Origin: a virus
Lineage: Duplodnaviria > Heunggongvirae > Uroviricota > Caudoviricetes
Length of the DNA stretch: 39,564 nucleotides
Virus record (IMG/VR): IMGVR_UViG_2684622542_000012
Direction: 5' to 3' (one strand)
The translations under genes and the position numbers were made by a program. Positions 1,984 to 34,056 of this stretch are shown piece after piece. The notes under the pieces were generated by a model. That model was given only the letters and a program-made list of their open reading frames with translations. It did not search any database and was not told the DNA's origin. Every line of letters begins with the position of its first letter. Within the stretch, counting starts at the first letter, position 1.

Positions 1984-2793
1984 TTATTCCTCTGAATTAT
2001 CGATTACACTGTATTCCCCGGTTAATACAGAGGAATCTGCAGGATCGATTGTCAGTGGTTCCTTTTCATCCATTGATACTGCACGCTGGATCTCAATTGA
2101 TACGGGCAGATATTTGAACAGGCGACGAATAGCCGTTTTCTTTGCCATTTCTTCCCAGTGAGTTACCCACGGCCCGTTATTACCAGCTTTACTCTGGCTG
2201 CGCACCAGCTCAATCTGTTTGCGCGTCATAACTTCAAACTGAGTACCTCCGTCTTTCAGTCTTGCGACAGCATAGACGTGGGTAACAGGGGCATCTTCGT
2301 TTTCTCCTGGGCGGTGTATTAACTTTTCATCAAGGCCAAATTCGAAATTAAACTCGTCACCTTCACGGACAACACGGGCTGACAGGCTGGCGATTTGACC
2401 TGAACGGCGAGCCAGATCAATCATGCCGCGATAGCCAATGATTAGCTGAACGTTTTTTTTACCGCTCTTTTCGTTTTTATTACCAAAAGGCAGTAAATAT
2501 GCATGACCGAGGGCGCTACCGGGCTCAAGTCCGAGCTGTGAACACTGTACGATTGCACTGACAAAACTCATAGTGTCACAGTTTCCTAACGCCGGAACTT
2601 TACGAATTTCTGTGGTGGCGATACGGATCATACGTTCAGCCGTCATATGGCGTGGAAGAGCTGCTGCCAGTTGCTCTTTCATTGATGGCTGGTTAATAAA
2701 ACTAATCACGTCGTTATTTTTAATTGCTGCTGGTGCACGGTTTCCCTGAGTTTTTTGCAGATCGGCTTTTGCGATTGGTGGTTGCTTAGTCAT
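1984..2793 (-). CDS. recT: RecT single-strand annealing recombinase, 269 aa
   Basis: Internal ATG gives MTKQPPIAKADLQKTQGNRAPAAIKNNDVISFINQPSMKEQLAAALPRHM..., matching recalled E. coli RecT over its length (269 aa). Directly downstream of recE on the same strand. Confidence 0.9.
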   Translation of the reverse strand: MTKQPPIAKADLQKTQGNRAPAAIKNNDVISFINQPSMKEQLAAALPRHMTAERMIRIATTEIRKVPALGNCDTMSFVSAIVQCSQLGLEPGSALGHAYLLPFGNKNEKSGKKNVQLIIGYRGMIDLARRSGQIASLSARVVREGDEFNFEFGLDEKLIHRPGENEDAPVTHVYAVARLKDGGTQFEVMTRKQIELVRSQSKAGNNGPWVTHWEEMAKKTAIRRLFKYLPVSIEIQRAVSMDEKEPLTIDPADSSVLTGEYSVIDNSEE

Positions 2794-2846
2794 TTGCATA
2801 TTCCTTAGCCCAGCGGGGCAGTGATAACGTCTTAATAGCTGGCCAT

Positions 2847-5393
2847 TCATNNNNNNNNNNNNNNNNNNNNNNNNNNNNNNNNNNNNNNNNNNNNNNNNNN
2901 NNNNNNNNNNNNNNNNNNNNNNNNNNNNNNNNNNNNNNNNNNNNNNNNNNNNNNNNNNNNNNNNNNNNNNNNNNNNNNNNNNNNNNNNNNNNNNNNNNNN
3001 NNNNNNNNNNNNNNNNNNNNNNNNNNNNNNNNNNNNNNNNNNNNNNNNNNNNNNNNNNNNNNNNNNNNNNNNNNNNNNNNNNNNNNNNNNNNNNNNNNNN
3101 NNGCCGTAGTTTTCACGTCCATGATCCAGTGAAATTCAGGGATAATTTTGTCCGGACGGCACCGACACAAAATTGCTGTTTCAGGATCTTCCCAGTAAAT
3201 TGATGATTCAGCGTGTCCGGCGCTTTCAACAAGCCATTGCCCCAGCGGCAAAGCCATAACGCTCTGATACATGAGTTCAATTTTCCGGCCTTCTTCGGCA
3301 GTGATAACCGTTTTTCCTGTGCTTGCGCATTCCCTCAGAAACGCTTTCTCTTCTTCTTTTCCGGAGTTTGTCCGGCGGTTAAATTCAGGTGCTACGATAA
3401 AGCGGTTACTGAATTCTTCCGGCTCAAGTACCCGGCAGTGGAAAGCGGTTCCTAAATCGAGCGTTTTTGTCTTTGTGGTGTCCACGGGGGCATTTTTACG
3501 CCACAAATACAGTGCCGGAGTATCAGCAATGTCATCGAGCTGAGACTTACTGACACCGGGACCCGCGTGGTAATTCTCATTCGAAATTCCGTAATAAATA
3601 CCTGGCTCTATGTCTTCTACGATTACGGGATCTGCGACTTCGCCAGTTTCATCACTGCAATCGCGATGCGGATCGCTGCCAGCATTCTCATTGTGCGGAT
3701 GTTCAGCGCCTTCCATTTCCTCCGGATCATTTTCCTTAGCTTCAACCTGACTCTCTTCATCGAATGTTTCCTGGTATGTTGCGTCGCCCATCACCGCACC
3801 ACAGTCAGGGCAGTTATCCCCGCCAGTCTGGCCGCAGGCATTGCAGGCTATTTCCGGTTCCTGTTGCACTACTGGCTCAGGTTGATTCATATCCGGGCTG
3901 GTTTTTTCCGTTTCTGGCTGGTTCTGGTACACACAATCGCGAGTCTGGATCCCCTTTACCCATTTCGGATCGTTCGGGTCGCTAATTCCGTCAACAAATT
4001 CACCACGTGATGCAGCAAGCAATTTATCGGCATCGACAGGATTTTTTGATGGAATGTTTTTCCGGGCTTCATGGAGTTCTGCCCGCAGTTCCTGATATTT
4101 CGCATCAACAGAATTTACCTGTGACTGAGCATCCAGCGGCTGCGTGTCCTGATGATGTTCAGTTGCGTCCGGTTCCATTGTTTCAGCCTCTCCCTGTTCA
4201 ACTGCCGTTGTTCCAGATGGTTGCGGTTTTTCTTCATCATCCTGTTTTCCTTCTTCTGTTACTCGCTGCGGCATCGGGGCAGAGGAGCGACCGCAGGCAA
4301 TATCCACGATTTCCGGATCAGGGTTGGCATGATCGGTTTCAGTCAGTACTTTGTTCAGATATTCAGTGACGTGCGCGGGGATGACCTCGATCCCAATTGG
4401 TGCTTCTTTTACGGACGCAACCACGATGGCGCGGGAATAATCCAGCCCGCCAGGCATGGTGATGAATTTGTCGCGGAAAACAGAAAAGGGCGGTTTATTT
4501 TCAGCGATAATTTCCTCAATGCGTTTAGCGTGTGCCGGATGAAGGTTATAGATGTCCAGATCCATTGAACGGGCCAGTACGCCAGTGGCTACGTCCCGCG
4601 CCAGTGACGTCAGATCGTGTACGAAACCTTCGCCGCGATCGGTGAGGTTTCCGCCGCCAGCATTAGCACCGGAAGCCGTGCGAGTGATGTGTGAAACACG
4701 ATTACCCTTCATCCACTCTTTTGTCAGCAGTCCTCGATCGGTGTAGTCAGCGTTCAGGTATGCTTCGAAAAAAGCAGTTATCAGTCCCAGGTTTGAATTA
4801 CCAGGATTAGGGAAAACTTTGTCAGTGTCACGAACCAGTTTGTGGAGTTCGCGAATTTCCAGCGGGTCGAGCAGGCTGGTTTTGTGGGAAACAGCCAGGG
4901 CAGTAACAGCCGGTAGTTCTTCAGCCCGAGCAATGTGTAATGCCTGGAGTCCGTCGCGTGAAACGTGCGTTACCGGTTTTTCGCTGCCGTGTTGAGCAAG
5001 CCAACGAATGGGCAGTTCCTGGCCAGAAATTGGGAGTAGCATATTCTCCTCAATCTCAGTCATGTCTTCGCCGTTGACGTTGGTATTGCCTTGATAGTGA
5101 GCGTTGTCTGGTGCTGCTCCCGGTTTTAGTTCCCATGTCATGGAGTCTTTGCTGAGTTGATAGCGTTCACTCCAGGTAAAATCGATCTCACCTTCAGCGG
5201 GCAGGTCATTAACGACAGGAAAATTCGTGGCAACAGCTTTAAAATAGCTGCTCAGTTTTTTACCTGACTTAACGATCAGGTAGTCCAGAGTGGCACAGGT
5301 CGATTCAAAATCGTTGCTTGCCCACAGGACGACGTCAGGTTCACCGGATGATTTTTTCGCTTTCCGTAACAGGAAGAGTGGTTTTGTGCTCAT
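2847..5393 (-). CDS. recE: RecE exonuclease VIII; C-terminal part lies in masked N-run 2851-3102
   Basis: Long minus-strand [44 protein letters not shown]... with acidic linker and C-terminal nuclease region ([24 protein letters not shown]...). Overlaps recT start as in the recET operon. C-terminus unreadable because of Ns. Confidence 0.85.
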
Positions 5394-11765: not shown

Positions 11766-11903
11766 ACGTTACTAGATCAAAGAGCATTAGTTCATATGTA
11801 AATTGACATTTTTCTGGCACAGGGGAGAGCTAGCGTGGTTGTCCGCTTTGTGCCAATAGCGGACATTGCTGGCTCATGGTATGTTAGTTTAAGGAGGCAG
11901 GTT

Positions 11904-12926
11904 ATGCCCTGTATTTCGCTGTGGTATAATAGTTGCGCAATTGATACAAGGGAGCGTTACATCGTGAAAATTGTTTTCGAGGTTAATGGAAAGAAAGTTC
12001 CACTAAAATCTTTAAAATACATAAGCAAAAAAGATCAACTCGAAGTAATGAAAAACTGGTTCTTTGAAAACTTTGAAGATCCGGCAAATGCTTGTCCGTA
12101 TGAAAGTAGAGAAGGTGGCTATGCTTACATATATGGCGGGCCGTATGATGCGAGCGAAGAACTACAATCCATCTTCGGTCAATATGTTAAATCTGAGTAT
12201 ATTGAGGAATTAGTAGATGAATTACAAACACAATGTTTTGACTGGTCTGGAAACTCAAATAATATAGATGATTGGTACGATGATGATATCTACGACGCTG
12301 TAACGTCTTCCGGTAATCCGTATTTAAAATTCATTGATAATATCGATAAAATAAAAAAACTTGCAAAAGATAAAACTGAACAACAGCAAAAAAACCACTT
12401 GCTTAGTTTGCTCTACACGAATGTTATTACAGCTTTGGAAACGCTTTATGTTGAGCTATTCATTAATTCTATAGAGAAAGATGATGTCTACATAGCCAAT
12501 TGTATAGAAAAAGGTAAGACTGAATTTAAAGTAAGCAAAGATATTGCTGCGTTGCCTTTCAAGGGTGAACCCATCGAGAAAATTAGGGGAGAGCTAATCA
12601 GGTCAATCAAGGAACACTTGATCAGTGCAAGCTGGCATAGCACTAAAAAGGTAATCGACCGCTATGAAGCTACATTCGATATAAAAGTACAAAAAGACTG
12701 TCCGATAGAAGCTATTGAATTGGCAACCCTCAATCGAAATCACTTAGTGCATCGTGGTGGAAAGGATAAAGAAGGGAACCTCGTAGTGATTACAGACCAG
12801 GATCTTGAAACGCTGATTGAAAATGCATCGAACCTGGCAATTATGCTCTACAACAGTTTAAATGTAGCAACGAATAAAACCACCATTTTGCAACCAGATG
12901 ACAAACCGTTCATTCATGAATTTTAA
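11904..12926 (+). CDS. Hypothetical protein A of AT-rich accessory cassette (about 340 aa)
   Basis: Strong RBS ttTAAGGAGGcaggttATG at 11904. Alternative GTG start at 11964 preceded by aagggag and an extended -10-like TGgTATAAT at about 11922-11930. Visibly AT-rich, Lys/Asn/Ile-rich coding. No family recognised. Confidence 0.55.
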   Translation: MPCISLWYNSCAIDTRERYIVKIVFEVNGKKVPLKSLKYISKKDQLEVMKNWFFENFEDPANACPYESREGGYAYIYGGPYDASEELQSIFGQYVKSEYIEELVDELQTQCFDWSGNSNNIDDWYDDDIYDAVTSSGNPYLKFIDNIDKIKKLAKDKTEQQQKNHLLSLLYTNVITALETLYVELFINSIEKDDVYIANCIEKGKTEFKVSKDIAALPFKGEPIEKIRGELIRSIKEHLISASWHSTKKVIDRYEATFDIKVQKDCPIEAIELATLNRNHLVHRGGKDKEGNLVVITDQDLETLIENASNLAIMLYNSLNVATNKTTILQPDDKPFIHEF

Positions 12927-12941
12927 TAGCGCAGGTCATAC

Positions 12942-13943
12942 ATGGATATTCGCACACGAAAGACAAAATTTTTAGAGTCGTTAGATTCAACTGAAGTGAT
13001 ACGCAAAGCAGTAAGTCTCGCTATAGATTGCATTATTGATAATCATAATAGTAATGAAGATACCCCCTTAGTTATTACCAGCTATGATGATCTCTGTAGA
13101 ATCCAGGTGCTAAATTATGTACAGGAGTTTTGCGAAGCTGCATTCCCTGATATGGATGAATATTACTTTAGTCCTAACATACTTCGCATCAACGGCAAGA
13201 CTAGTGAAGAAGCTTGTATTAACTTAATTAAACTCTTAAGAAGTACAAAAGGCATGCTATTCTGGTCCGATGCCCCATCGTGGTTCGCTAGCCTCCCCGA
13301 CGGATTATTCCATGTTGTTAACATTGATCAAAAAATCGTTACTCGCGGCCTTAATAAGAAAAACTCTAAGCCGACAATAATCAATAAAGATTACAGTGTA
13401 GATACACTACTATCAGAGCTATTTTTGAATGGCGCACACATGGAGCAACCCAACGTACACAACGTTTCTGAGGGAAACATGAAGTTCTATGATGAATGCC
13501 ATGCTGGATTAATCAGACCAATACCCGCTCCAATAGGCGCGTCATACGATGAAGAGATCACAATTAATTCTCCAGATTGGCAAAAGCTCGCGTGTGTAGC
13601 TTTACGCCGCTATCAGTCGAAGGAATGTCATGACGGAATGCAATGGGATACAACCGATCATGGTTGGACTGATGTAATCGCGTATCCATTCGTCGAAGAA
13701 ATACAATCAATGGATAATAGTGGTTATCGACAATGTTTAGTTGGGCTGGTCACAATAAACAATTCAAATGCAAATTCTCCGTACCTATCTACCGTTTGGA
13801 TACATCCATTTTATCGCAGGAGAGGGTTATTAAGTAAGTTATGGCCAAAATTACAAGAGTTATATGGAAGTAACTTCGAAATTGAGCGACCTAATGAAAA
13901 TATGAAAGCATTTCTGAAAAGTGCGAAACACGCAGATTACTAA
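12942..13943 (+). CDS. Hypothetical protein B of AT-rich cassette with GNAT-acetyltransferase-like C-terminal motif
   Basis: 333-aa ORF 15 bp after protein A. C-terminal segment ...QCLVGLVTINNSNANSPYLSTVWIHPFYRRRGLLSKLWPKLQELYG resembles the GNAT motif-A strand-helix (h-x-P-x-Y-R-x-x-G). AT-rich like gene A. Confidence 0.55.
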   Translation: MDIRTRKTKFLESLDSTEVIRKAVSLAIDCIIDNHNSNEDTPLVITSYDDLCRIQVLNYVQEFCEAAFPDMDEYYFSPNILRINGKTSEEACINLIKLLRSTKGMLFWSDAPSWFASLPDGLFHVVNIDQKIVTRGLNKKNSKPTIINKDYSVDTLLSELFLNGAHMEQPNVHNVSEGNMKFYDECHAGLIRPIPAPIGASYDEEITINSPDWQKLACVALRRYQSKECHDGMQWDTTDHGWTDVIAYPFVEEIQSMDNSGYRQCLVGLVTINNSNANSPYLSTVWIHPFYRRRGLLSKLWPKLQELYGSNFEIERPNENMKAFLKSAKHADY

Positions 13944-14496
13944 TTTATGAATCAGTCTGTGGAGTTAGGGTTGGTGTGAACAAGTAGGGTAAGAGCCTCA
14001 ACGTGATGCTATGCCGACCTGCTCCCTGAGAATTCACACAGAAGGCTGCTAGCAATGTCTGCAGATCGCTCAAAGCGGACTAAAATGTTGGCTTGTTTCT
14101 GACTTAGAGCATTTAAGGAAGTGCTGGTGGTGACTGGTTGTTGTGTTCCATTTCTACAGAATAAAATCACAGAAACTATACCCAATAGTTGTATTGAATC
14201 ACTGACGAGACAGCCTCATATTTATCAGGACTGGTGTGCGTCTAATACAGGGGGTTGTCGTGCTGGTTCTCAAATGTGCGCTGGCTATTGCGGCTGTAAT
14301 GGCAATTTATTGTCTTGCTGTTGTTCTTATGGAGCGGCTTTCTGATTGATTACATACTGGCTAGAAAAAAGGTGTTACCTTGGTTTATCTTTGTCCGGCA
14401 AGGTGCGCTCATTAATCTTAAGTAAATTTATTGCTCAAGTATTCAGATTACTTCTTATGGTTGAAGTCTCCTGTCAATGTAGAACCAATATATTTA

Positions 14497-14902: not shown

Positions 14903-15715
14903 AACCACCTCCTCCAAAACATGCATTAAAAATGCATCTTTTGGAGGGTTATGTCAAGCTGTTATGAAACACATAATTGATATGTTGATTAGAGGAGAAG
15001 ATAGAATAAATATGGTTGTTTTTCGTATAACTATTTGTTTTACTTTTAGTTTATGCATTCTGTGTGTTAGGAATAAGTTATTAAAGTTTAATCAAAAAAT
15101 CTCGATGTAGTCCACATAGATTACTGTTACTGAACCTTATTGTGTGTATTAGTTGTGTTCTGAAATTTCAGCTTAATTATTTATGATGTATTTTTTAACG
15201 ATAAATATTTTCCCAGGATACCTTTACTGTGTATATAAATAAATTATATACGCATAAATAATGTAAAGGCGTCCTTTTAGATATATCTTATCAAATGTTA
15301 ATGACTTGAGTGGGAAATATGATTCCAGCAACTTATCATGTGGCTACTTTATAAAAATAATGCCCATATAAAACAACAAGCGAAAAGGATTACGGATAAA
15401 AAAGGAGCGAGATGTGCGAACTTGTTATTTTCCATGTTTAACCACCTTAAATAATTGATGATGACGGGATGATTGCATCTGTAATGCTTTTATTGAAATG
15501 TTATGATAAAAAAGAACTTTTGCATAACATTAAAATGTAATTTATCTAATCGTTTTTAATAATAAGTGTCGTATTTCTATCCTTGTACCAGCTATTTGAT
15601 ATGTAGTGTTTGTTCATGCTATGTGGGGCTTTACACCATAGCCAGTTTATTTATACTTTATTCGTCAGCCTGAACAACTGGCATCTGCTGCGCTGCGCCA
15701 TCGAGAGATTGAGAA

Positions 15716-17251: not shown

Positions 17252-18128
17252 ACGTCAGGAAAGCAGGGGAGAATGCTGCTAGTTGGGCAACTGGTCTTTC
17301 TGCTCCAAATTATAACAGAGACCAGTTATAGTTTCGGTGCTGTGTTTTTTTTACAATATTGTGATAACACATTGCTGGCGGGAGTTTTGATATTTCTTGG
17401 CAGGGGCTGATGATGCGTTATCCTGATGTCGTCAACTCATATAAAATGAGATGAGAGATCATTGCAGGGTGGTTTGTAATNNNNNNNNNNNNNNNNNNNN
17501 NNNNNNNNNNNNNNNNNNNNNNNNNNNNNNNNNNNNNNNNNNNNNNNNNNNNNNNNNNNNNNNNNNNNNNNNNNNNNNNNNNNNNNNNNNNNNNNNNNNN
17601 NNNNNNNNNNNNNNNNNNNNNNNNNNNNNNNNNNNNNNNNNNNNNNNNNNNNNNNNNNNNNNNNNNNNNNNNNNNNNNNNNNNNNNNNNNNNNNNNNNNN
17701 NNNNNNNNNNNNNNNNNNNNNNNNNNNNNNNNNNGTATGATGAGTATTTTTTGTTTTCCTTTTTTCCAGTCATCTGATGATGACCTGCTTCTTTTTAATC
17801 CGGATCGACATCAGTTTTTTAAGATAATTCCTGCGAGTTATATGCATAAATGCCACAAACTCCGCATTTTATGTGGTTGGGAGTTGCCGGGCGCGCAGTG
17901 AGTTTGCTAAGAAAACTCCTGCATGGTGAATCCCCCTGTGCGGTGGGGTGATACCATTAACCTTTTCTGTCGCCGACAGGTATCACGAACATTTTGTTCA
18001 CCGGGAGGCACCCGGCACCATGCACTTCAATAGATTCTCTCCACATTATGGATATTCTTTCAGAATATCCCACGCAGACTTTGTGTAAATGTTAACAAAT
18101 GTGCGTTTTATTTGATCTGATTCGCTGT

Positions 18129-18187: not shown

Positions 18188-18616
18188 ATGGGTTTTCGTA
18201 GCGCATCAATTCTTACGTTGATTATTAGTGGGATTATTATCGGGTGCACTGATGCTGTATCGACAAATTATCATGACCGTACATCATATTACTCCGATAA
18301 AGCAATAGAGACACAGTATGTGAGTTCATCTGAACGTACTTCTGATGTTAGTGAGGATATCCGTCTGTATGCCCATCAAATCAAGAGCGCCATCGAAAAA
18401 CAGTTCGGGGATGCGAGTAAGTATTCAGGAAAAGAGTGTACACTGAGAATGCATATGGCCCCGAATGGCCTTCTACTGGAGGTTAAAAGAGAAAGTGGAG
18501 ACCTCGATTTATGTCGTGAAGCGATGAATGCGATAAAGAATGCTGATATACCTGCCCCCCCTTCGCCGGAAGTATATAAAGTATTTCAAAATGGGGTGCT
18601 GGATTTTAAACCCTGA
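18188..18616 (+). CDS. Lipoprotein with TolA C-terminal domain III-like fold
   Basis: Signal peptide with lipobox IIGC. C-terminal region YAHQIKSAIEKQFGDASKYSGKECTLRMHMAPNGLLLEVKRESGDLDLCREAMNAIKNADIPAPPSPEVYKVFQNGVLDFKP is colinear with the recalled E. coli TolA C-terminus (YAGQIKSAIESKFYDASSYAGKTCTLRIKLAPDG...PPSQAVYEVFKNAPLDFKP). Confidence 0.75.
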   Translation: MGFRSASILTLIISGIIIGCTDAVSTNYHDRTSYYSDKAIETQYVSSSERTSDVSEDIRLYAHQIKSAIEKQFGDASKYSGKECTLRMHMAPNGLLLEVKRESGDLDLCREAMNAIKNADIPAPPSPEVYKVFQNGVLDFKP

Positions 18617-18937
18617 TATTTATTGTTTTGTAATAAACGGTTTCGGCTTAGGTTTGTTCTGACNNNNNNNNNNNNNNNNNNNNNNNNNNNNNNNNNNNNN
18701 NNNNNNNNNNNNNNNNNNNNNNNNNNNNNNNNNNNNNNNNNNNNNNNNNNNNNNNNNNNNNNNNNNNNNNNNNNNNNNNNNNNNNNNNNNNNNNNNNNNN
18801 NNNNNNNNNNNNNNNNNNNNNNNNNNNNNNNNNNNNNNNNNNNNNNNNNNNNNNNNNNNNNNNNNNNNNNNNNNNNNNNNNNNNNNNNNNNNNNNNNNNN
18901 NNNNNNNNNNNNNNNNNNNNNNNNNNNNNNNNNNNNN

Positions 18938-19191
18938 GGGCGCAAGCGCGGGGAATCAGAGCTGCAATTAATGCCAAACTTGATGAGCCGCATAACTGGA
19001 AAGGGAAAAAATGCAGGTTGCATATGGAATTCTCTCAGGATGGCACGGCGTTAAAAATATCTACCAGTAACGGTGATAAAGCCTATTGCGAAGCGATAAA
19101 GTCCGCAGCTCATAAAGCCAAATTTCCGGCCTTCAACAATCCGGAAGTCTACAGAGATTTTCAGAAATCTGGCTTTGACATGCGAGGTTAG
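18938..19191 (+). CDS. Second TolA domain III-like protein; N-terminus in N-run 18664-18937
   Basis: In-frame translation after the gap: ...GKKCRLHMEFSQDGTALKISTSNGDKAYCEAIKSAAHKAKFPAFNNPEVYRDFQKSGFDMRG, stop 19189-19191. Same G-K-x-C-x-L...C...PEVY pattern as the upstream paralog. Confidence 0.55.
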
Positions 19192-19658: not shown

Positions 19659-20155
19659 TGCCTCCATCATTACGAAAAGTCGTTGCTGCTGCTATTGGTG
19701 GCGGAGCAATTGCTATAGCATCAGTGTTAATCACTGGCCCAAGTGGTAACGATGGTCTGGAAGGTGTCAGCTACATACCATACAAAGATATTGTTGGTGT
19801 ATGGACTGTATGTCACGGGCATACAGGAAAAGACATCATGCTCGGTAAAACGTATACCAAAGCAGAATGCAAAACACTCTTGAATAAAGACCTTGCCACT
19901 GTCGCCAGACAAATTAACCCGTACATCAAAGTCGATATACCGGAAACAACGCGCGGCGCTCTTTACTCGTTCGTTTACAACGTGGGTGCTGGTAATTTCA
20001 GAACATCGACGCTTCTTCGCAAAATAAACCAGGGCGATATCAAAGGCGCATGTGATCAGCTACGTCGCTGGACATATGCTGGCGGTAAGCAATGGAAAGG
20101 TCTCATGACTCGTCGTGAGATTGAGCGTGAAGTCTGTTTGTGGGGTCAACAATGA
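19658..20155 (+). CDS. SAR endolysin (lysozyme, RrrD / phage 21 R-like), 165 aa
   Basis: N-terminal signal-anchor-release segment [20 protein letters not shown] followed by a T4-lysozyme-like domain (E...D...T motif region [11 protein letters not shown]). Confidence 0.9.
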
Positions 20156-20687
20156 GCAGGGTAACCGCGATTATCTCCGCTCTGGTTATNNNNNNNNNNN
20201 NNNNNNNNNNNNNNNNNNNNNNNNNNNNNNNNNNNNNNNNNNNNNNNNNNNNNNNNNNNNNNNNNNNNNNNNNNNNNNNNNNNNNNNNNNNNNNNNNNNN
20301 NNNNNNNNNNNNNNNNNNNNNNNNNNNNNNNNNNNNNNNNNNNNNNNNNNNNNNNNNNNNNNNNNNNNNNNNNNNNNNNNNNNNNNNNNNNNNNNNNNNN
20401 NNNNNNNNNNNNNNNNNNNNNNNNNNNNNNNNNNNNNNNNNNNNNCGAAAGCTGAAAATGATGCTCTGCGTGATGATGTTGCCGCTGGTCGTCGTCGGTT
20501 GCACATCAAAGCAGTCTGTCAGTCAGTGCGTGAAGCCACCACCGCCTCCGGCGTGGATAATGCAGCCTCCCCCCGACTGGCAGACACCGCTGAACGGGAT
20601 TATTTCACCCTCCGGGAACGACTGGTAATGATGCAGGCCCAACTTGAAGGTGCTCAGCAATACATAACCGAGCAGTGTTTAAAGTAA
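20152..20687 (+). CDS. Rz-like inner-membrane spanin; middle in N-run 20190-20445
   Basis: Start [12 protein letters not shown]... overlaps the endolysin stop. C-terminal coiled-coil part after the gap (...[26 protein letters not shown]...[17 protein letters not shown]). Frames before and after the gap differ, so the gap length is not the true length. Confidence 0.7.
20458..20628 (+). CDS. Rz1-like outer-membrane lipoprotein spanin embedded in Rz (+1 frame)
   Basis: [56 protein letters not shown]: lipobox VVGC, proline-rich, nested in Rz. Confidence 0.65.
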   Translation: MMLCVMMLPLVVVGCTSKQSVSQCVKPPPPPAWIMQPPPDWQTPLNGIISPSGNDW

Positions 20688-22419: not shown

Positions 22420-22860
22420 ATGAGCGAGAAATTAAAGATAGTCTATCGCCCATTACAAGAATTGTCACCGTATGCGCACAACGCCAGGACGCACAGTACT
22501 GAGCAGGTGGCACAACTGGTAGAAAGTATTAAGCAATTCGGCTGGACTAATCCGGTNNNNNNNNNNNNNNNNNNNNNNNNNNNNNNNNNNNNNNNNNNNN
22601 NNNNNNNNNNNNNNNNNNNNNNNNNNNNNNNNNNNNNNNNNNNNNNNNNNNNNNNNNNNNNNNNNNNNNNNNNNNNNNNNNNNNNNNNNNNNNNNNNNNN
22701 NNNNNNNNNNNNNNNNNNNNNNNNNNNNNNNNNNNNNNNNNNNNNNNNNNNNNNNNNNNNNNNNNNNNNNNNNNNNNNNNNNNNNNNNNNNNNNNNNNNN
22801 NNNNNNNNNNNNNNNNNNNNNNNNNNNNNNNNNNNNNNNNNNAAATTGATGAACTGTTGA
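22420..22860 (+). CDS. ynaK: ParB-like nuclease domain protein (YnaK-like); middle in N-run 22557-22842
   Basis: N-terminus MSEKLKIVYRPLQELSPYAHNARTHSTEQVAQLVESIKQFGWTNP has the ParB N-terminal signature (L.PY..NAR.H). Rest masked. Confidence 0.6.
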   Translation: MSEKLKIVYRPLQELSPYAHNARTHSTEQVAQLVESIKQFGWTNPXXXXXXXXXXXXXXXXXXXXXXXXXXXXXXXXXXXXXXXXXXXXXXXXXXXXXXXXXXXXXXXXXXXXXXXXXXXXXXXXXXXXXXXXXXXXXXXXKLMNC

Positions 22861-23246
22861 CGGATGTTTTGCCCGGTACAGGAAATGAGGAGGAGCCGTA
22901 TACGACGAAAATTGATACGCCTGTTTATGAGCCGTCAGGCGGTAAACCGGATATCAGTGAACTGTACGACGATACGAAAACTCAGGAGCTGATCAGCCGG
23001 ATACGTTCGGCGTCCCTTGATCCTGATATTGAGAAATTCCTCCTGTGTGCAGCAGAACGTCACACGGTGTTTAATTTCAGCAGAATTGCGGACTATTACG
23101 CTCATGCCCCCGCTGAAATTCAGTGCCTTTTCGAGGAGTCGGCGCTGGTGATCATTGATTATCAGCAGGCTATTGAAAATGGATTTGTCCGAATGACGCA
23201 GCGCATGGTGGAGATCATGCATGGCGGGGAGGAGGAATATGCGTGA
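22857..23246 (+). CDS. ydaY: YdaY-like hypothetical protein
   Basis: 129-aa acidic ORF MTDVLPGTGNEEEPYTTKIDTPVYEPSGGKPDISELYDD... ATGA overlap with the preceding stop. Assignment by position in Rac and vague recall. Confidence 0.5.
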   Translation: MTDVLPGTGNEEEPYTTKIDTPVYEPSGGKPDISELYDDTKTQELISRIRSASLDPDIEKFLLCAAERHTVFNFSRIADYYAHAPAEIQCLFEESALVIIDYQQAIENGFVRMTQRMVEIMHGGEEEYA

Positions 23247-32742: not shown

Positions 32743-33131
32743 AGTTTACTGAAATCAGAAATACGGTTATTTCCAGAATGACGGCACAGACGATTATTGA
32801 TGGAAAAGACGTATTGTATCCGAACGGGCCAACGTTCGATCCTTCCGGTAAGTTAATCTGGGCGCGGTTAAGTAATATTCCCGGGCAGGCTGGAGTTAAT
32901 GAAATTGGCGCGGGGCCGGTTGTTTATCGCACGGGGATAATCATTATTCAGTTATTTGTCCCCGCAGGTTCTGGTTCAAAACTCATTACTGAGACAGCCG
33001 ATAAATTGCGGGAACTGTTTGAGTTTCAGGATGACGATCGTCTCAGTTACCAGGCTGTTTCCTCAATAGCCGTTGGCGAAAAGAATGGCTGGTTCCAGCT
33101 TAATCTTCAAATTCCATATCGCGCGCTCTAG
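32739..33131 (+). CDS. Putative tail terminator protein (lambda gpU-like)
   Basis: 130-aa ORF MKFTEIRNTVISRM... immediately upstream of the major tail gene. Weak resemblance to the gpU N-terminus. Confidence 0.5.
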   Translation: MKFTEIRNTVISRMTAQTIIDGKDVLYPNGPTFDPSGKLIWARLSNIPGQAGVNEIGAGPVVYRTGIIIIQLFVPAGSGSKLITETADKLRELFEFQDDDRLSYQAVSSIAVGEKNGWFQLNLQIPYRAL

Positions 33132-33157
33132 CGCAATTAATGACATAGGAGGCTCCT

Positions 33158-34056
33158 GTGAGTTCAGGTGCAAAGGTTATCTCGGCATTTATCCGGGAGA
33201 CGGTTGCAGGCACTACGCCAGCAAGTGGTGACTGGAGTTTATTAAAACGCACAAGCTGGGGAGTAAAANNNNNNNNNNNNNNNNNNNNNNNNNNNNNNNN
33301 NNNNNNNNNNNNNNNNNNNNNNNNNNNNNNNNNNNNNNNNNNNNNNNNNNNNNNNNNNNNNNNNNNNNNNNNNNNNNNNNNNNNNNNNNNNNNNNNNNNN
33401 NNNNNNNNNNNNNNNNNNNNNNNNNNNNNNNNNNNNNNNNNNNNNNNNNNNNNNNNNNNNNNNGCTCATGGAAAATGCAGATCCCTAACGACGGCGATAT
33501 TACAGCGACCGTAACCTTTGCCGGACTGGACTGGGAATCAAAGGCCGATGATACGAATTTTATCAAAGGCGAACCTGTGGATAGTGCAGGAAAGCTACGT
33601 TATTCGTTTAAGGAGGTTTCAGCAGTAAGCCTGAATGGTGTTGCCGGAGGTAACGGTTTTTGTATCGACAGTTTTGATATTCAGTTCGATAACAAACTCC
33701 AGACACAGCGTTGTATCGGGACTGGCTCGCCTTATGCAGGAGCAAATATTCCGACTACTTTTACACCGTCCGGTACGGTGACGCTTTCATGGTCTAAAGC
33801 CGCGTGGGAAATCTGGAGTAAAACACTGACTGGAGAAACAGTTCCGTTCAGCTTCACGCTTTCGAATGGAGAGGGGGCATACACTTTCAGTTTCCCGAAG
33901 GTTCAGGTGTCAGGTGAATGGCCTGATGGGGGTAATAGCGACATTATCCAGGTTCAATTGAGCATTACCGCAGCAGATGAAGCACCTACGATAACCAGAA
34001 AAAAAAATTCCCCGGCTGCCGTGATCGCAAAAGCCAGTGCTGAGGCGATTAGTTGA
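33158..34056 (+). CDS. Putative major tail (tube) protein; interrupted by N-run 33269-33463
   Basis: N-terminal fragment MSSGAKVISAFIRETVAGTTPASGDWSLLKRTSWGVK..., then a Thr/Ser/Gly-rich beta-type sequence after the gap to stop at 34056. Frames differ across the gap. Confidence 0.55.

Follow-up and report, generated by a model that had tools for sequence, protein, structure and literature searches.

Genes A and B in a Rac-like prophage

We analysed a stretch of 39,564 nucleotides (hereafter the window; positions are counted from its first letter) from the virus record IMGVR_UViG_2684622542_000012. The window is a Rac-like lambdoid prophage of E. coli, with the RalA small RNA (sRNA), the antitoxin of RalR in the Rac prophage, at 1557-1735 (Rfam, 225 bits). 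Our subject is a cassette of two neighbouring open reading frames (ORFs) on the plus strand, ending at 12926 and 13943, which we call genes A and B. Gene A (11964-12926; 320 amino acids (aa), RefSeq WP_014639476) encodes an HEPN/RES-NTD1 domain followed by an HEPN RNase-type domain, and gene B (12942-13943, plus strand; 333 aa, RefSeq WP_000354966) encodes a two-domain protein. The pair is preceded, in order, by the genes for a DUF1376 replication protein, a DnaC/IstB-like ATPase, DUF1627 and DUF977, and succeeded by those for DUF1971 (minus strand), DUF1367, YbcO and a Q-like antiterminator. On balance we favour the view that the cassette is an accessory ('moron') operon in a cargo-exchange slot, in which A is a solo-capable HEPN abortive-infection (Abi) effector and B its facultative GNAT-like companion.

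The cassette differs in composition from its surroundings. The GC content of A and B is 0.361 and 0.391, against 0.47-0.53 in the flanking genes, and at third codon positions (GC3) it is 0.35-0.36 against 0.47-0.61. Moreover, Lys, Asn and Ile together make up a fraction of 0.26 of protein A and 0.20 of protein B, compared with 0.12-0.18 in their neighbours. An earlier note on this DNA, made from the sequence alone, had described two adjacent genes that are AT-rich and Lys/Asn/Ile-rich relative to their flanks, and all three measures bear out the description. The two ORFs and their ends also stand, but the start that the note assigned to A does not. It had been placed at ATG 11904, with TAAGGAGG at 11890-11897 as the ribosome-binding site. 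Both are present in the window, but when the copies from E. coli, Serratia and Aeromonas are aligned, both prove to be missing from that of Aeromonas; this start was therefore rejected. GTG 11964 is conserved across all three copies and is served by an AAGGGAG ribosome-binding site at 11948-11954 (plus strand), conserved as AAGGAG in Aeromonas. RefSeq likewise calls the 320-aa form with the GTG start, and nearly all homologues are 310-326 aa in length. We therefore take gene A to be 11964-12926.

With A starting at 11964, the extended -10-like element TGGTATAAT (11922-11930, plus strand) lies upstream of the gene and not within it. All three aligned copies keep the pattern TGnTAYAAT at a distance of 33-42 nt ahead of the GTG, and it is only ahead of A that a conserved promoter-like element is present. 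By its position and conservation, TGGTATAAT is the probable promoter of the operon.

Domains of the two proteins

Residues ~1-100 of A (11964-12263, plus strand) form the HEPN/RES-NTD1 domain (PF18870), with the motif WF..NFEDP..CPYES.EGGY.YIYGGPYDA. A has this module in common with RES NADase toxins. Against A itself PF18870 scores E 1.9e-4 and 22.2 bits, below its gathering score of 27.4, and it matches 62 of the 66 aligned family members (E<0.01); many homologues are already annotated with it. Membership of A in PF18870 can thus be said to hold at the level of the family. NTD1 is the most conserved part of A in the 66 sequences, with most of the invariant columns at residues 25-94, and is therefore under the strongest constraint.

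Residues ~136-308 (12369-12887, plus strand) form a helical HEPN domain with a four-helix up-and-down core, whose nearest structural neighbours are HEPN toxins of the HepT/MntA type (5yep, 7ae2, 8xdj). It carries the predicted R-x4-H catalytic motif R258-N-H-L-V-H263 (12735-12752, plus strand). R258, H263 and R264 (R-N-H-L-V-H-R) are invariant in 66/66 homologues and a polar residue follows the first arginine, the arrangement R-x4-6-H with a polar residue after R being the defining signature of HEPN RNase sites (PMC3710099). Also invariant is E159 in helix 140-170, a candidate for the conserved acidic residue that HEPN proteins carry in the helix before the motif. PF18735 (HEPN_RiboL-PSP) has no match to A itself at E<=1 and matches 30 of its 66 relatives (best E 7e-11), so that A belongs to this family by transitivity only. 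From these sequence features A is an HEPN RNase-type protein, with RNase activity predicted. The earlier note had stated that neither protein matches a family that can be named; for A this is wrong, as both the HEPN domain and its R-x4-H motif had been missed.

The architecture of A is not new. A 2013 survey lists a group of proteins in which HEPN/RES-NTD1 is fused to a RiboL-PSP-type HEPN domain, and gives them a predicted Abi-like function (Anantharaman et al., PMC3710099). Protein A resembles these HEPN/RES-NTD1 plus MAE_18760/RiboL-PSP-type proteins (PF18870 + PF18735) in having NTD1 at the N-terminus and an R-x4-H HEPN domain at the C-terminus, and no domain-level difference sets it apart; the pairing with a GNAT-like gene and the lambdoid slot are not described there. 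A literature search with the RefSeq accessions, the family names and HEPN+GNAT anti-phage systems found nothing on the family of A later than that survey. In PHROGs A and B match only their own unannotated families, and no informative match for either came from NCBIfam or from PDB sequences. Judged by its domains, A is a new member of a catalogued kind, and its function is a predicted one.

Protein B divides into an alpha/beta N-terminal domain (residues 1-175; 12942-13466, plus strand) and a minimal GNAT-like domain (residues 176-333; 13467-13943, plus strand) that also occurs as stand-alone proteins of ~160 aa. The N-terminal domain has no family match in Pfam, PADLOC, PHROGs or NCBIfam and no convincing fold match. 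In an exhaustive profile search it was matched only by full-length relatives of B or their fragments, in about ten clusters at 50% identity. Its residues Cys30, His124 and Asn138 may form a triad. The AlphaFold2 model of B is confident (pLDDT, the predicted local distance difference test, 90.6), and structure comparison finds the GNAT alpha/beta fold at the C-terminus, with SSAT, AAC and polyamine acetyltransferases, all small-molecule GNATs, among the structural neighbours. By sequence, the Pfam GNAT family PF00583 matches residues 264-311 just below its cut-off (E 9e-4, 19.9 bits; cut-off 20.7). It also matches 17 of 45 relatives of B (E<0.01, best 6e-6) and only one of ten stand-alone relatives of the C-terminal domain, and the C-terminal fragment of an insertion-split B is labelled 'GNAT family N-acetyltransferase' by PGAP. 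The GNAT-type C-terminus that the earlier note had read from a peptide near the end of B is upheld by the structure prediction it had proposed as a check, and the sub-threshold Pfam match falls on that peptide.

Near the end of B, VWIHPFYRRRGLLSKLWPKLQELYG (13794-13868, plus strand) corresponds to a beta4-alpha3 'motif A'-like segment containing R292-R-R-G295-L-L297. Canonical GNAT motif A has the pyrophosphate loop Q/R-x-x-G-x-G/A. Among the relatives of B, R292 is invariant, some have R, Q or E in place of G295, and all have Leu where the loop would end in G/A. The exhaustive profile search further recovered ~40 stand-alone relatives of the C-terminal domain (proteins P0192-P0235; ~150-175 aa, E down to 1e-37). 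They share the motifs IRP..A..G..FD.WIT..SP.WQR and W.HPF.R..GLL and are mostly unrecognised by Pfam. One of them (160 aa, L118 3001-3483) lies in a phage replication module, where it overlaps a DUF3987 primase-like gene at that gene's end. Protein B defines a small family with a new N-terminal domain, a minimal GNAT domain and stand-alone relatives in phages. The protein probably works as an acyl-CoA-dependent transferase, or else as a coenzyme A (CoA)-binding protein, expressed together with A.

A travelling operon whose genes also occur alone

Genes A and B are separated by 15 nt (TAATAGCGCAGGTCATAC-ATG; 12927-12941, plus strand), a length kept in every paired copy. The cassette in a Rac-like prophage is found in 209 of 5426 complete E. 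coli genomes (~4%), including the type strain ATCC 11775 and the extraintestinal and avian pathogenic (ExPEC/APEC) strains S88 and IHE3034. The pair also occurs in an Aeromonas relaxase island beside a SIR2 gene, at another site, chromosomal or in a prophage, with an HNH gene next to it (L117), in a Citrobacter phage-plasmid of the SSU5-like type (plasmid records of Klebsiella variicola and E. coli carry copies that are 100% identical) and on a Providencia plasmid. It spans at least five kinds of mobile element and, beyond E. coli, the genera Aeromonas, Serratia, Citrobacter, Klebsiella and Providencia. The mobile unit that the window has in common with the relaxase-bearing Aeromonas element (L106/L107) extends over 11905-13985 (plus strand; blastn, 2082 bp at 86% nucleotide identity). 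Synonymous divergence (dS) of A and B is alike in each comparison (A/B 0.055/0.072, 0.14/0.10, 0.41/0.46 and 1.10/0.74), purifying selection acts on both (ratio of nonsynonymous to synonymous divergence, dN/dS, 0.12-0.16 for A and 0.21-0.46 for B), and the paired A sequences form one clade. A-B is an operon that moves as a unit.

Both genes are also found singly. All A homologues at <=76% identity (~50 loci) are without B and usually lie alone at prophage ends or beside integrases, with no partner. Likewise, all B homologues at <=62% identity are without A, as are several at 86-91%, and the latter are nested inside the paired-B clade. We sought a conserved partner beside the solo B genes and found none, their neighbours being heterogeneous (antirestriction/RadC, CbeA, DUF4400, PolA and unknowns). 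Moreover, nature has disrupted each gene of the pair and left the other intact. An intact B stands beside a truncated A in four E. coli genomes and, in Providencia, beside an A frameshifted twice. In the reverse direction, strain SF-173 has B split by IS1, and E. coli MB56 (NZ_CP073936.1, L145) has ISSen4 in the first codons of B, both with A intact. Since most relatives are solo and natural knock-outs exist in both directions, the pair is an operon and not an obligate two-component or toxin-antitoxin (TA) system. We conclude that neither gene needs the other to be tolerated. The earlier note had put the pair forward as its best candidate for an undescribed two-component system; with the architecture of A catalogued since 2013 (PMC3710099) and a pairing that is not obligate, that proposal is not supported. 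The statement that paired-clade A never occurs without B was also considered and is not robust, because a 76%-identical A is solo.

Further observations concern the surroundings of the genes. In MB56, two ISSen4 copies, one upstream of A and one in B, flank A in a composite-transposon-like arrangement around the HEPN gene. A solo B homologue is found adjacent to polA twice (L004 and L020, Marinomonas), and a distant solo A homologue once, with an integrase in between (L009); this site may be an integration hotspot. In the Aeromonas loci (L106-L109, 7221-9293 and 4446-4862), A-B is adjoined by a SIR2-domain gene that overlaps a cREC_REC gene, and by a gene for a 239-aa unknown protein, none of which PADLOC recognises, and a 138-aa upstream protein gives a partial match to PD-Lambda-2_B (E 2e-7). 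These surroundings may constitute a small defence island on a mobilisable element.

The cargo slot and the role of the cassette

Two E. coli prophages with other cargo (L110 and L111) match the window in their flanks as far as 11867/8 and resume the match at 14066. This sets the variable slot at 11869-14065 (plus strand), between the DUF977 gene on one side and the hok-like/DUF1971 region on the other; here the A-B operon fills it. In L110 the filling is a gene for a DUF5677 protein (2163-3188), in L111 one for a 269-aa hypothetical protein on the minus strand (1419-2228), and in a sibling E. coli prophage (L112) genes for a 167-aa protein and a KilA-N protein that matches the PADLOC BstA model (E 3e-21). 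These alternative fillings confirm that the position is a cargo hotspot, and the exclusion or defence hotspot anticipated by the earlier note is borne out. BstA, a KilA-N Abi protein of prophages, is unrelated to A or B, and its relative in the same slot shows that the slot carries defence cargo. PADLOC recognised neither the DUF5677 protein nor the 269-aa protein; both add to the candidates that this hotspot offers.

The left junction of the slot carries a hairpin-forming element (11827-11876, plus strand; RNA fold -35 kcal/mol, z -2.85). Its core is an inverted repeat with perfect 8-nt arms, TGTCCGCT at 11840-11847 and AGCGGACA at 11858-11865. Backbone homology with the other-cargo prophages ends just past this repeat, and the homology of the Serratia cassette copy (L015) to the window begins in it, at 11841; the repeat therefore sits exactly on the cargo swap point. 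As the alignments place it, the repeat is part of the prophage backbone or junction and not of the cargo. The earlier note was right that it exists, slightly longer than it had been given (11840-11865), and wrong to count it among the signals of the cassette. Taken alone, an 8-nt inverted repeat within 300 nt is only weakly unusual. L110 has C-to-T changes in both arms, and G-U pairing in the plus-strand RNA would persist. Possible roles for the hairpin are to mark a module boundary, to serve recombination or to act as a structure in RNA. A slot with a hairpin exactly on its swap point makes a handy place for mining the cargo of lambdoid prophages.

In the reading that we favour, the lysogen would express A from the gene's own extended -10 promoter and keep the protein inactive until a cue is received through the NTD1 module. 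The HEPN domains would then pair to form a composite RNase site and cut tRNA, mRNA or rRNA, so that translation stops and the infection is aborted. B, co-transcribed from 15 nt downstream, would be a facultative companion and not an antitoxin or obligate subunit. The most likely mechanism would thus resemble that of HepS and Tha, two solo HEPN defences carried by prophages. The Abi protein HepS, from Gifsy-1 of Salmonella, stays inactive until it is triggered, and its targets are tRNA anticodon loops, which it cuts; like A it is prophage-encoded, has an R-x4-6-H motif and sits in an accessory slot after replication genes, with no partner gene (PMC13043305). Tha of S. aureus prophages is likewise a prophage HEPN protein with R-x4-6-H, usually has no partner and presumably stays inactive before a trigger arrives (PMC11087260). 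The cassette is a reasonable, unproven anti-phage candidate and not a new kind of system. The case for defence made in the earlier note was right in part; it was the two-component and toxin-acetyltransferase idea that was overstated.

Several observations weigh against an Abi operon of this description. PADLOC-DB v2 has no significant match for A (best E 0.01) and none for B. Of the profile searches named in the earlier note, Pfam gave a sub-threshold HEPN_RES_NTD1 match for A and a sub-threshold GNAT match for B, and neither protein turned up in PADLOC or the searched literature. The extended -10 that the note had picked out is present, conserved and upstream of the true start, yet TGnTAYAAT does not exceed chance in the window (2 found, 2.7 expected). 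Moreover, a consensus promoter and terminator scan showed no enrichment over chance in the A-B region. The promoter is accordingly inferred from one conserved motif that is not enriched over chance. The strong conservation of NTD1 would be unusual for a sensor of fast-evolving phage proteins, and the module may instead bind a conserved host factor or have another role. In B, the CoA loop is degenerate (R-R-x-G-K/L-L, G295 variable) and the beta6-beta7 topology is lacking, as the model ends after the alpha4 helix (319-327) with no strands following; B could be a non-catalytic binder. Lastly, SF-173 retains the N-terminal 187 residues of B, which leaves some room for a neutralising role of the N-terminal domain.

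Among the alternatives, the one that fares best, though we consider it fairly unlikely, is that A and B are functionally unrelated morons, linked by history only and not anti-phage, with A serving RNA processing or element maintenance and B acetylating a small molecule or host protein for lysogen fitness. That both families are mostly solo and unmatched in PADLOC agrees with this, as do the small-molecule GNATs among the structural neighbours of B and the location of some solo B genes beside ordinary chromosomal genes. However, five types of mobile element have preserved the spacer and the gene order although dS reaches ~0.7-1.1, the R-x4-H motif is invariant in an architecture typical of Abi proteins, and the contexts are of a defence type (BstA-like alternative cargo, SIR2 neighbours, prophage ends).

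It is doubtful that B, in the paired lineage, controls the HEPN RNase A by acetylation near its active site or acylates the same RNA/tRNA pool, with the N-terminal domain of B as adaptor or sensor. If true, a GNAT-regulated HEPN Abi system or type VII-like module would be a pairing not described so far. The stricter version, an enzyme-controlled toxin module (type VII-like TA or regulated Abi) in which B acetylates A, for example on the RGGKDK lysines near the catalytic His, or otherwise inactivates it, we regard as improbable. An operon in which a transferase-fold gene begins 15 nt after an HEPN gene recalls the type VII TA system HepT/MntA, and chemical neutralisation of HEPN toxins has a precedent (PMC7641770). 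In HepT/MntA, MntA AMPylates the toxin HepT. Co-inheritance with matching dS across several mobile elements would also suit such a module, and in the paired clade, as sampled, cases where A is lost and B retained outnumber the opposite. But the MNT partner of HepT is a minimal nucleotidyltransferase and B is GNAT-like, HepT/MntA toxins are ~130 aa and A is 320 aa with an extra domain, and the A-B pairing is not obligate. Close relatives of A (56-76% identity) have neither B nor any conserved neighbour, relatives of B are solo in unrelated contexts, and the CoA loop of B is degenerate. Together with SF-173 and MB56, where A is intact beside a disrupted B, these solo distributions make chemical control of A by B unlikely.

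Nor does B fit the 'toxin-like acetyltransferase' of the earlier note. The GNAT toxins (TacAT/AtaRT/ItaRT/KacAT) share with B a GNAT-type fold and a place on mobile elements. They are single-domain proteins of ~160-180 aa, whereas B, at 333 aa, joins a large N-terminal domain to a truncated GNAT core whose CoA loop is atypical. GNAT modules with ribbon-helix-helix (RHH) partners have an adjacent RHH/DUF1778 antitoxin, whereas the neighbours of B are A and the hok-like region, and B persists without A.

That B or the whole cassette serves the mobile element, by counter-defence against host immunity or by takeover or its own replication, we hold to be no more probable than the toxin module: the overlap of a 160-aa relative of the B C-terminal domain with a primase-like gene, the ~40 stand-alone relatives and the place of the cassette in the early-right transcription unit, with no terminator found by the consensus scan between the DUF977 gene and A, speak for it, but the cassette has its own promoter-like element and AT-rich moron character, occurs in non-phage elements too, and encodes an HEPN protein of a kind known as defence effectors (PMC3710099, PMC13043305).

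The HEPN Abi operon with a facultative companion thus remains the reading we favour, and phage-challenge experiments on the cassette would be cheap and well worth while. Should A prove protective, the HEPN/RES-NTD1 family would have its first tested member, and there would be a handle on NTD1.

The rest of the prophage offers some minor observations. In ATCC 11775 and PSS-08-1, sequence homologous to the right flank of the slot (14066-14364) lies upstream of hokD; in the flank itself neither a hok gene nor, by Rfam, a Sok RNA was detected. This flank contains an ORF (14236-14349) for a hydrophobic 37-aa peptide (MRLIQGVVVLVLKCALAIAAVMAIYCLAVVLMERLSD) with no Pfam match, and two terminator-like hairpins (14284-14338). 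Inside or adjoining the A-B cassette Rfam found no RNA family, and it places an STnc100 sRNA at 17891-18077 (87 bits). Patches with a GC content of 0.20-0.29, more AT-rich than the cassette itself, lie at 15001-15500, 17501-18000, 18501-19000, 20001-20500, 22501-23000 and 33001-33500, and may be other acquired cargo or regulatory regions.

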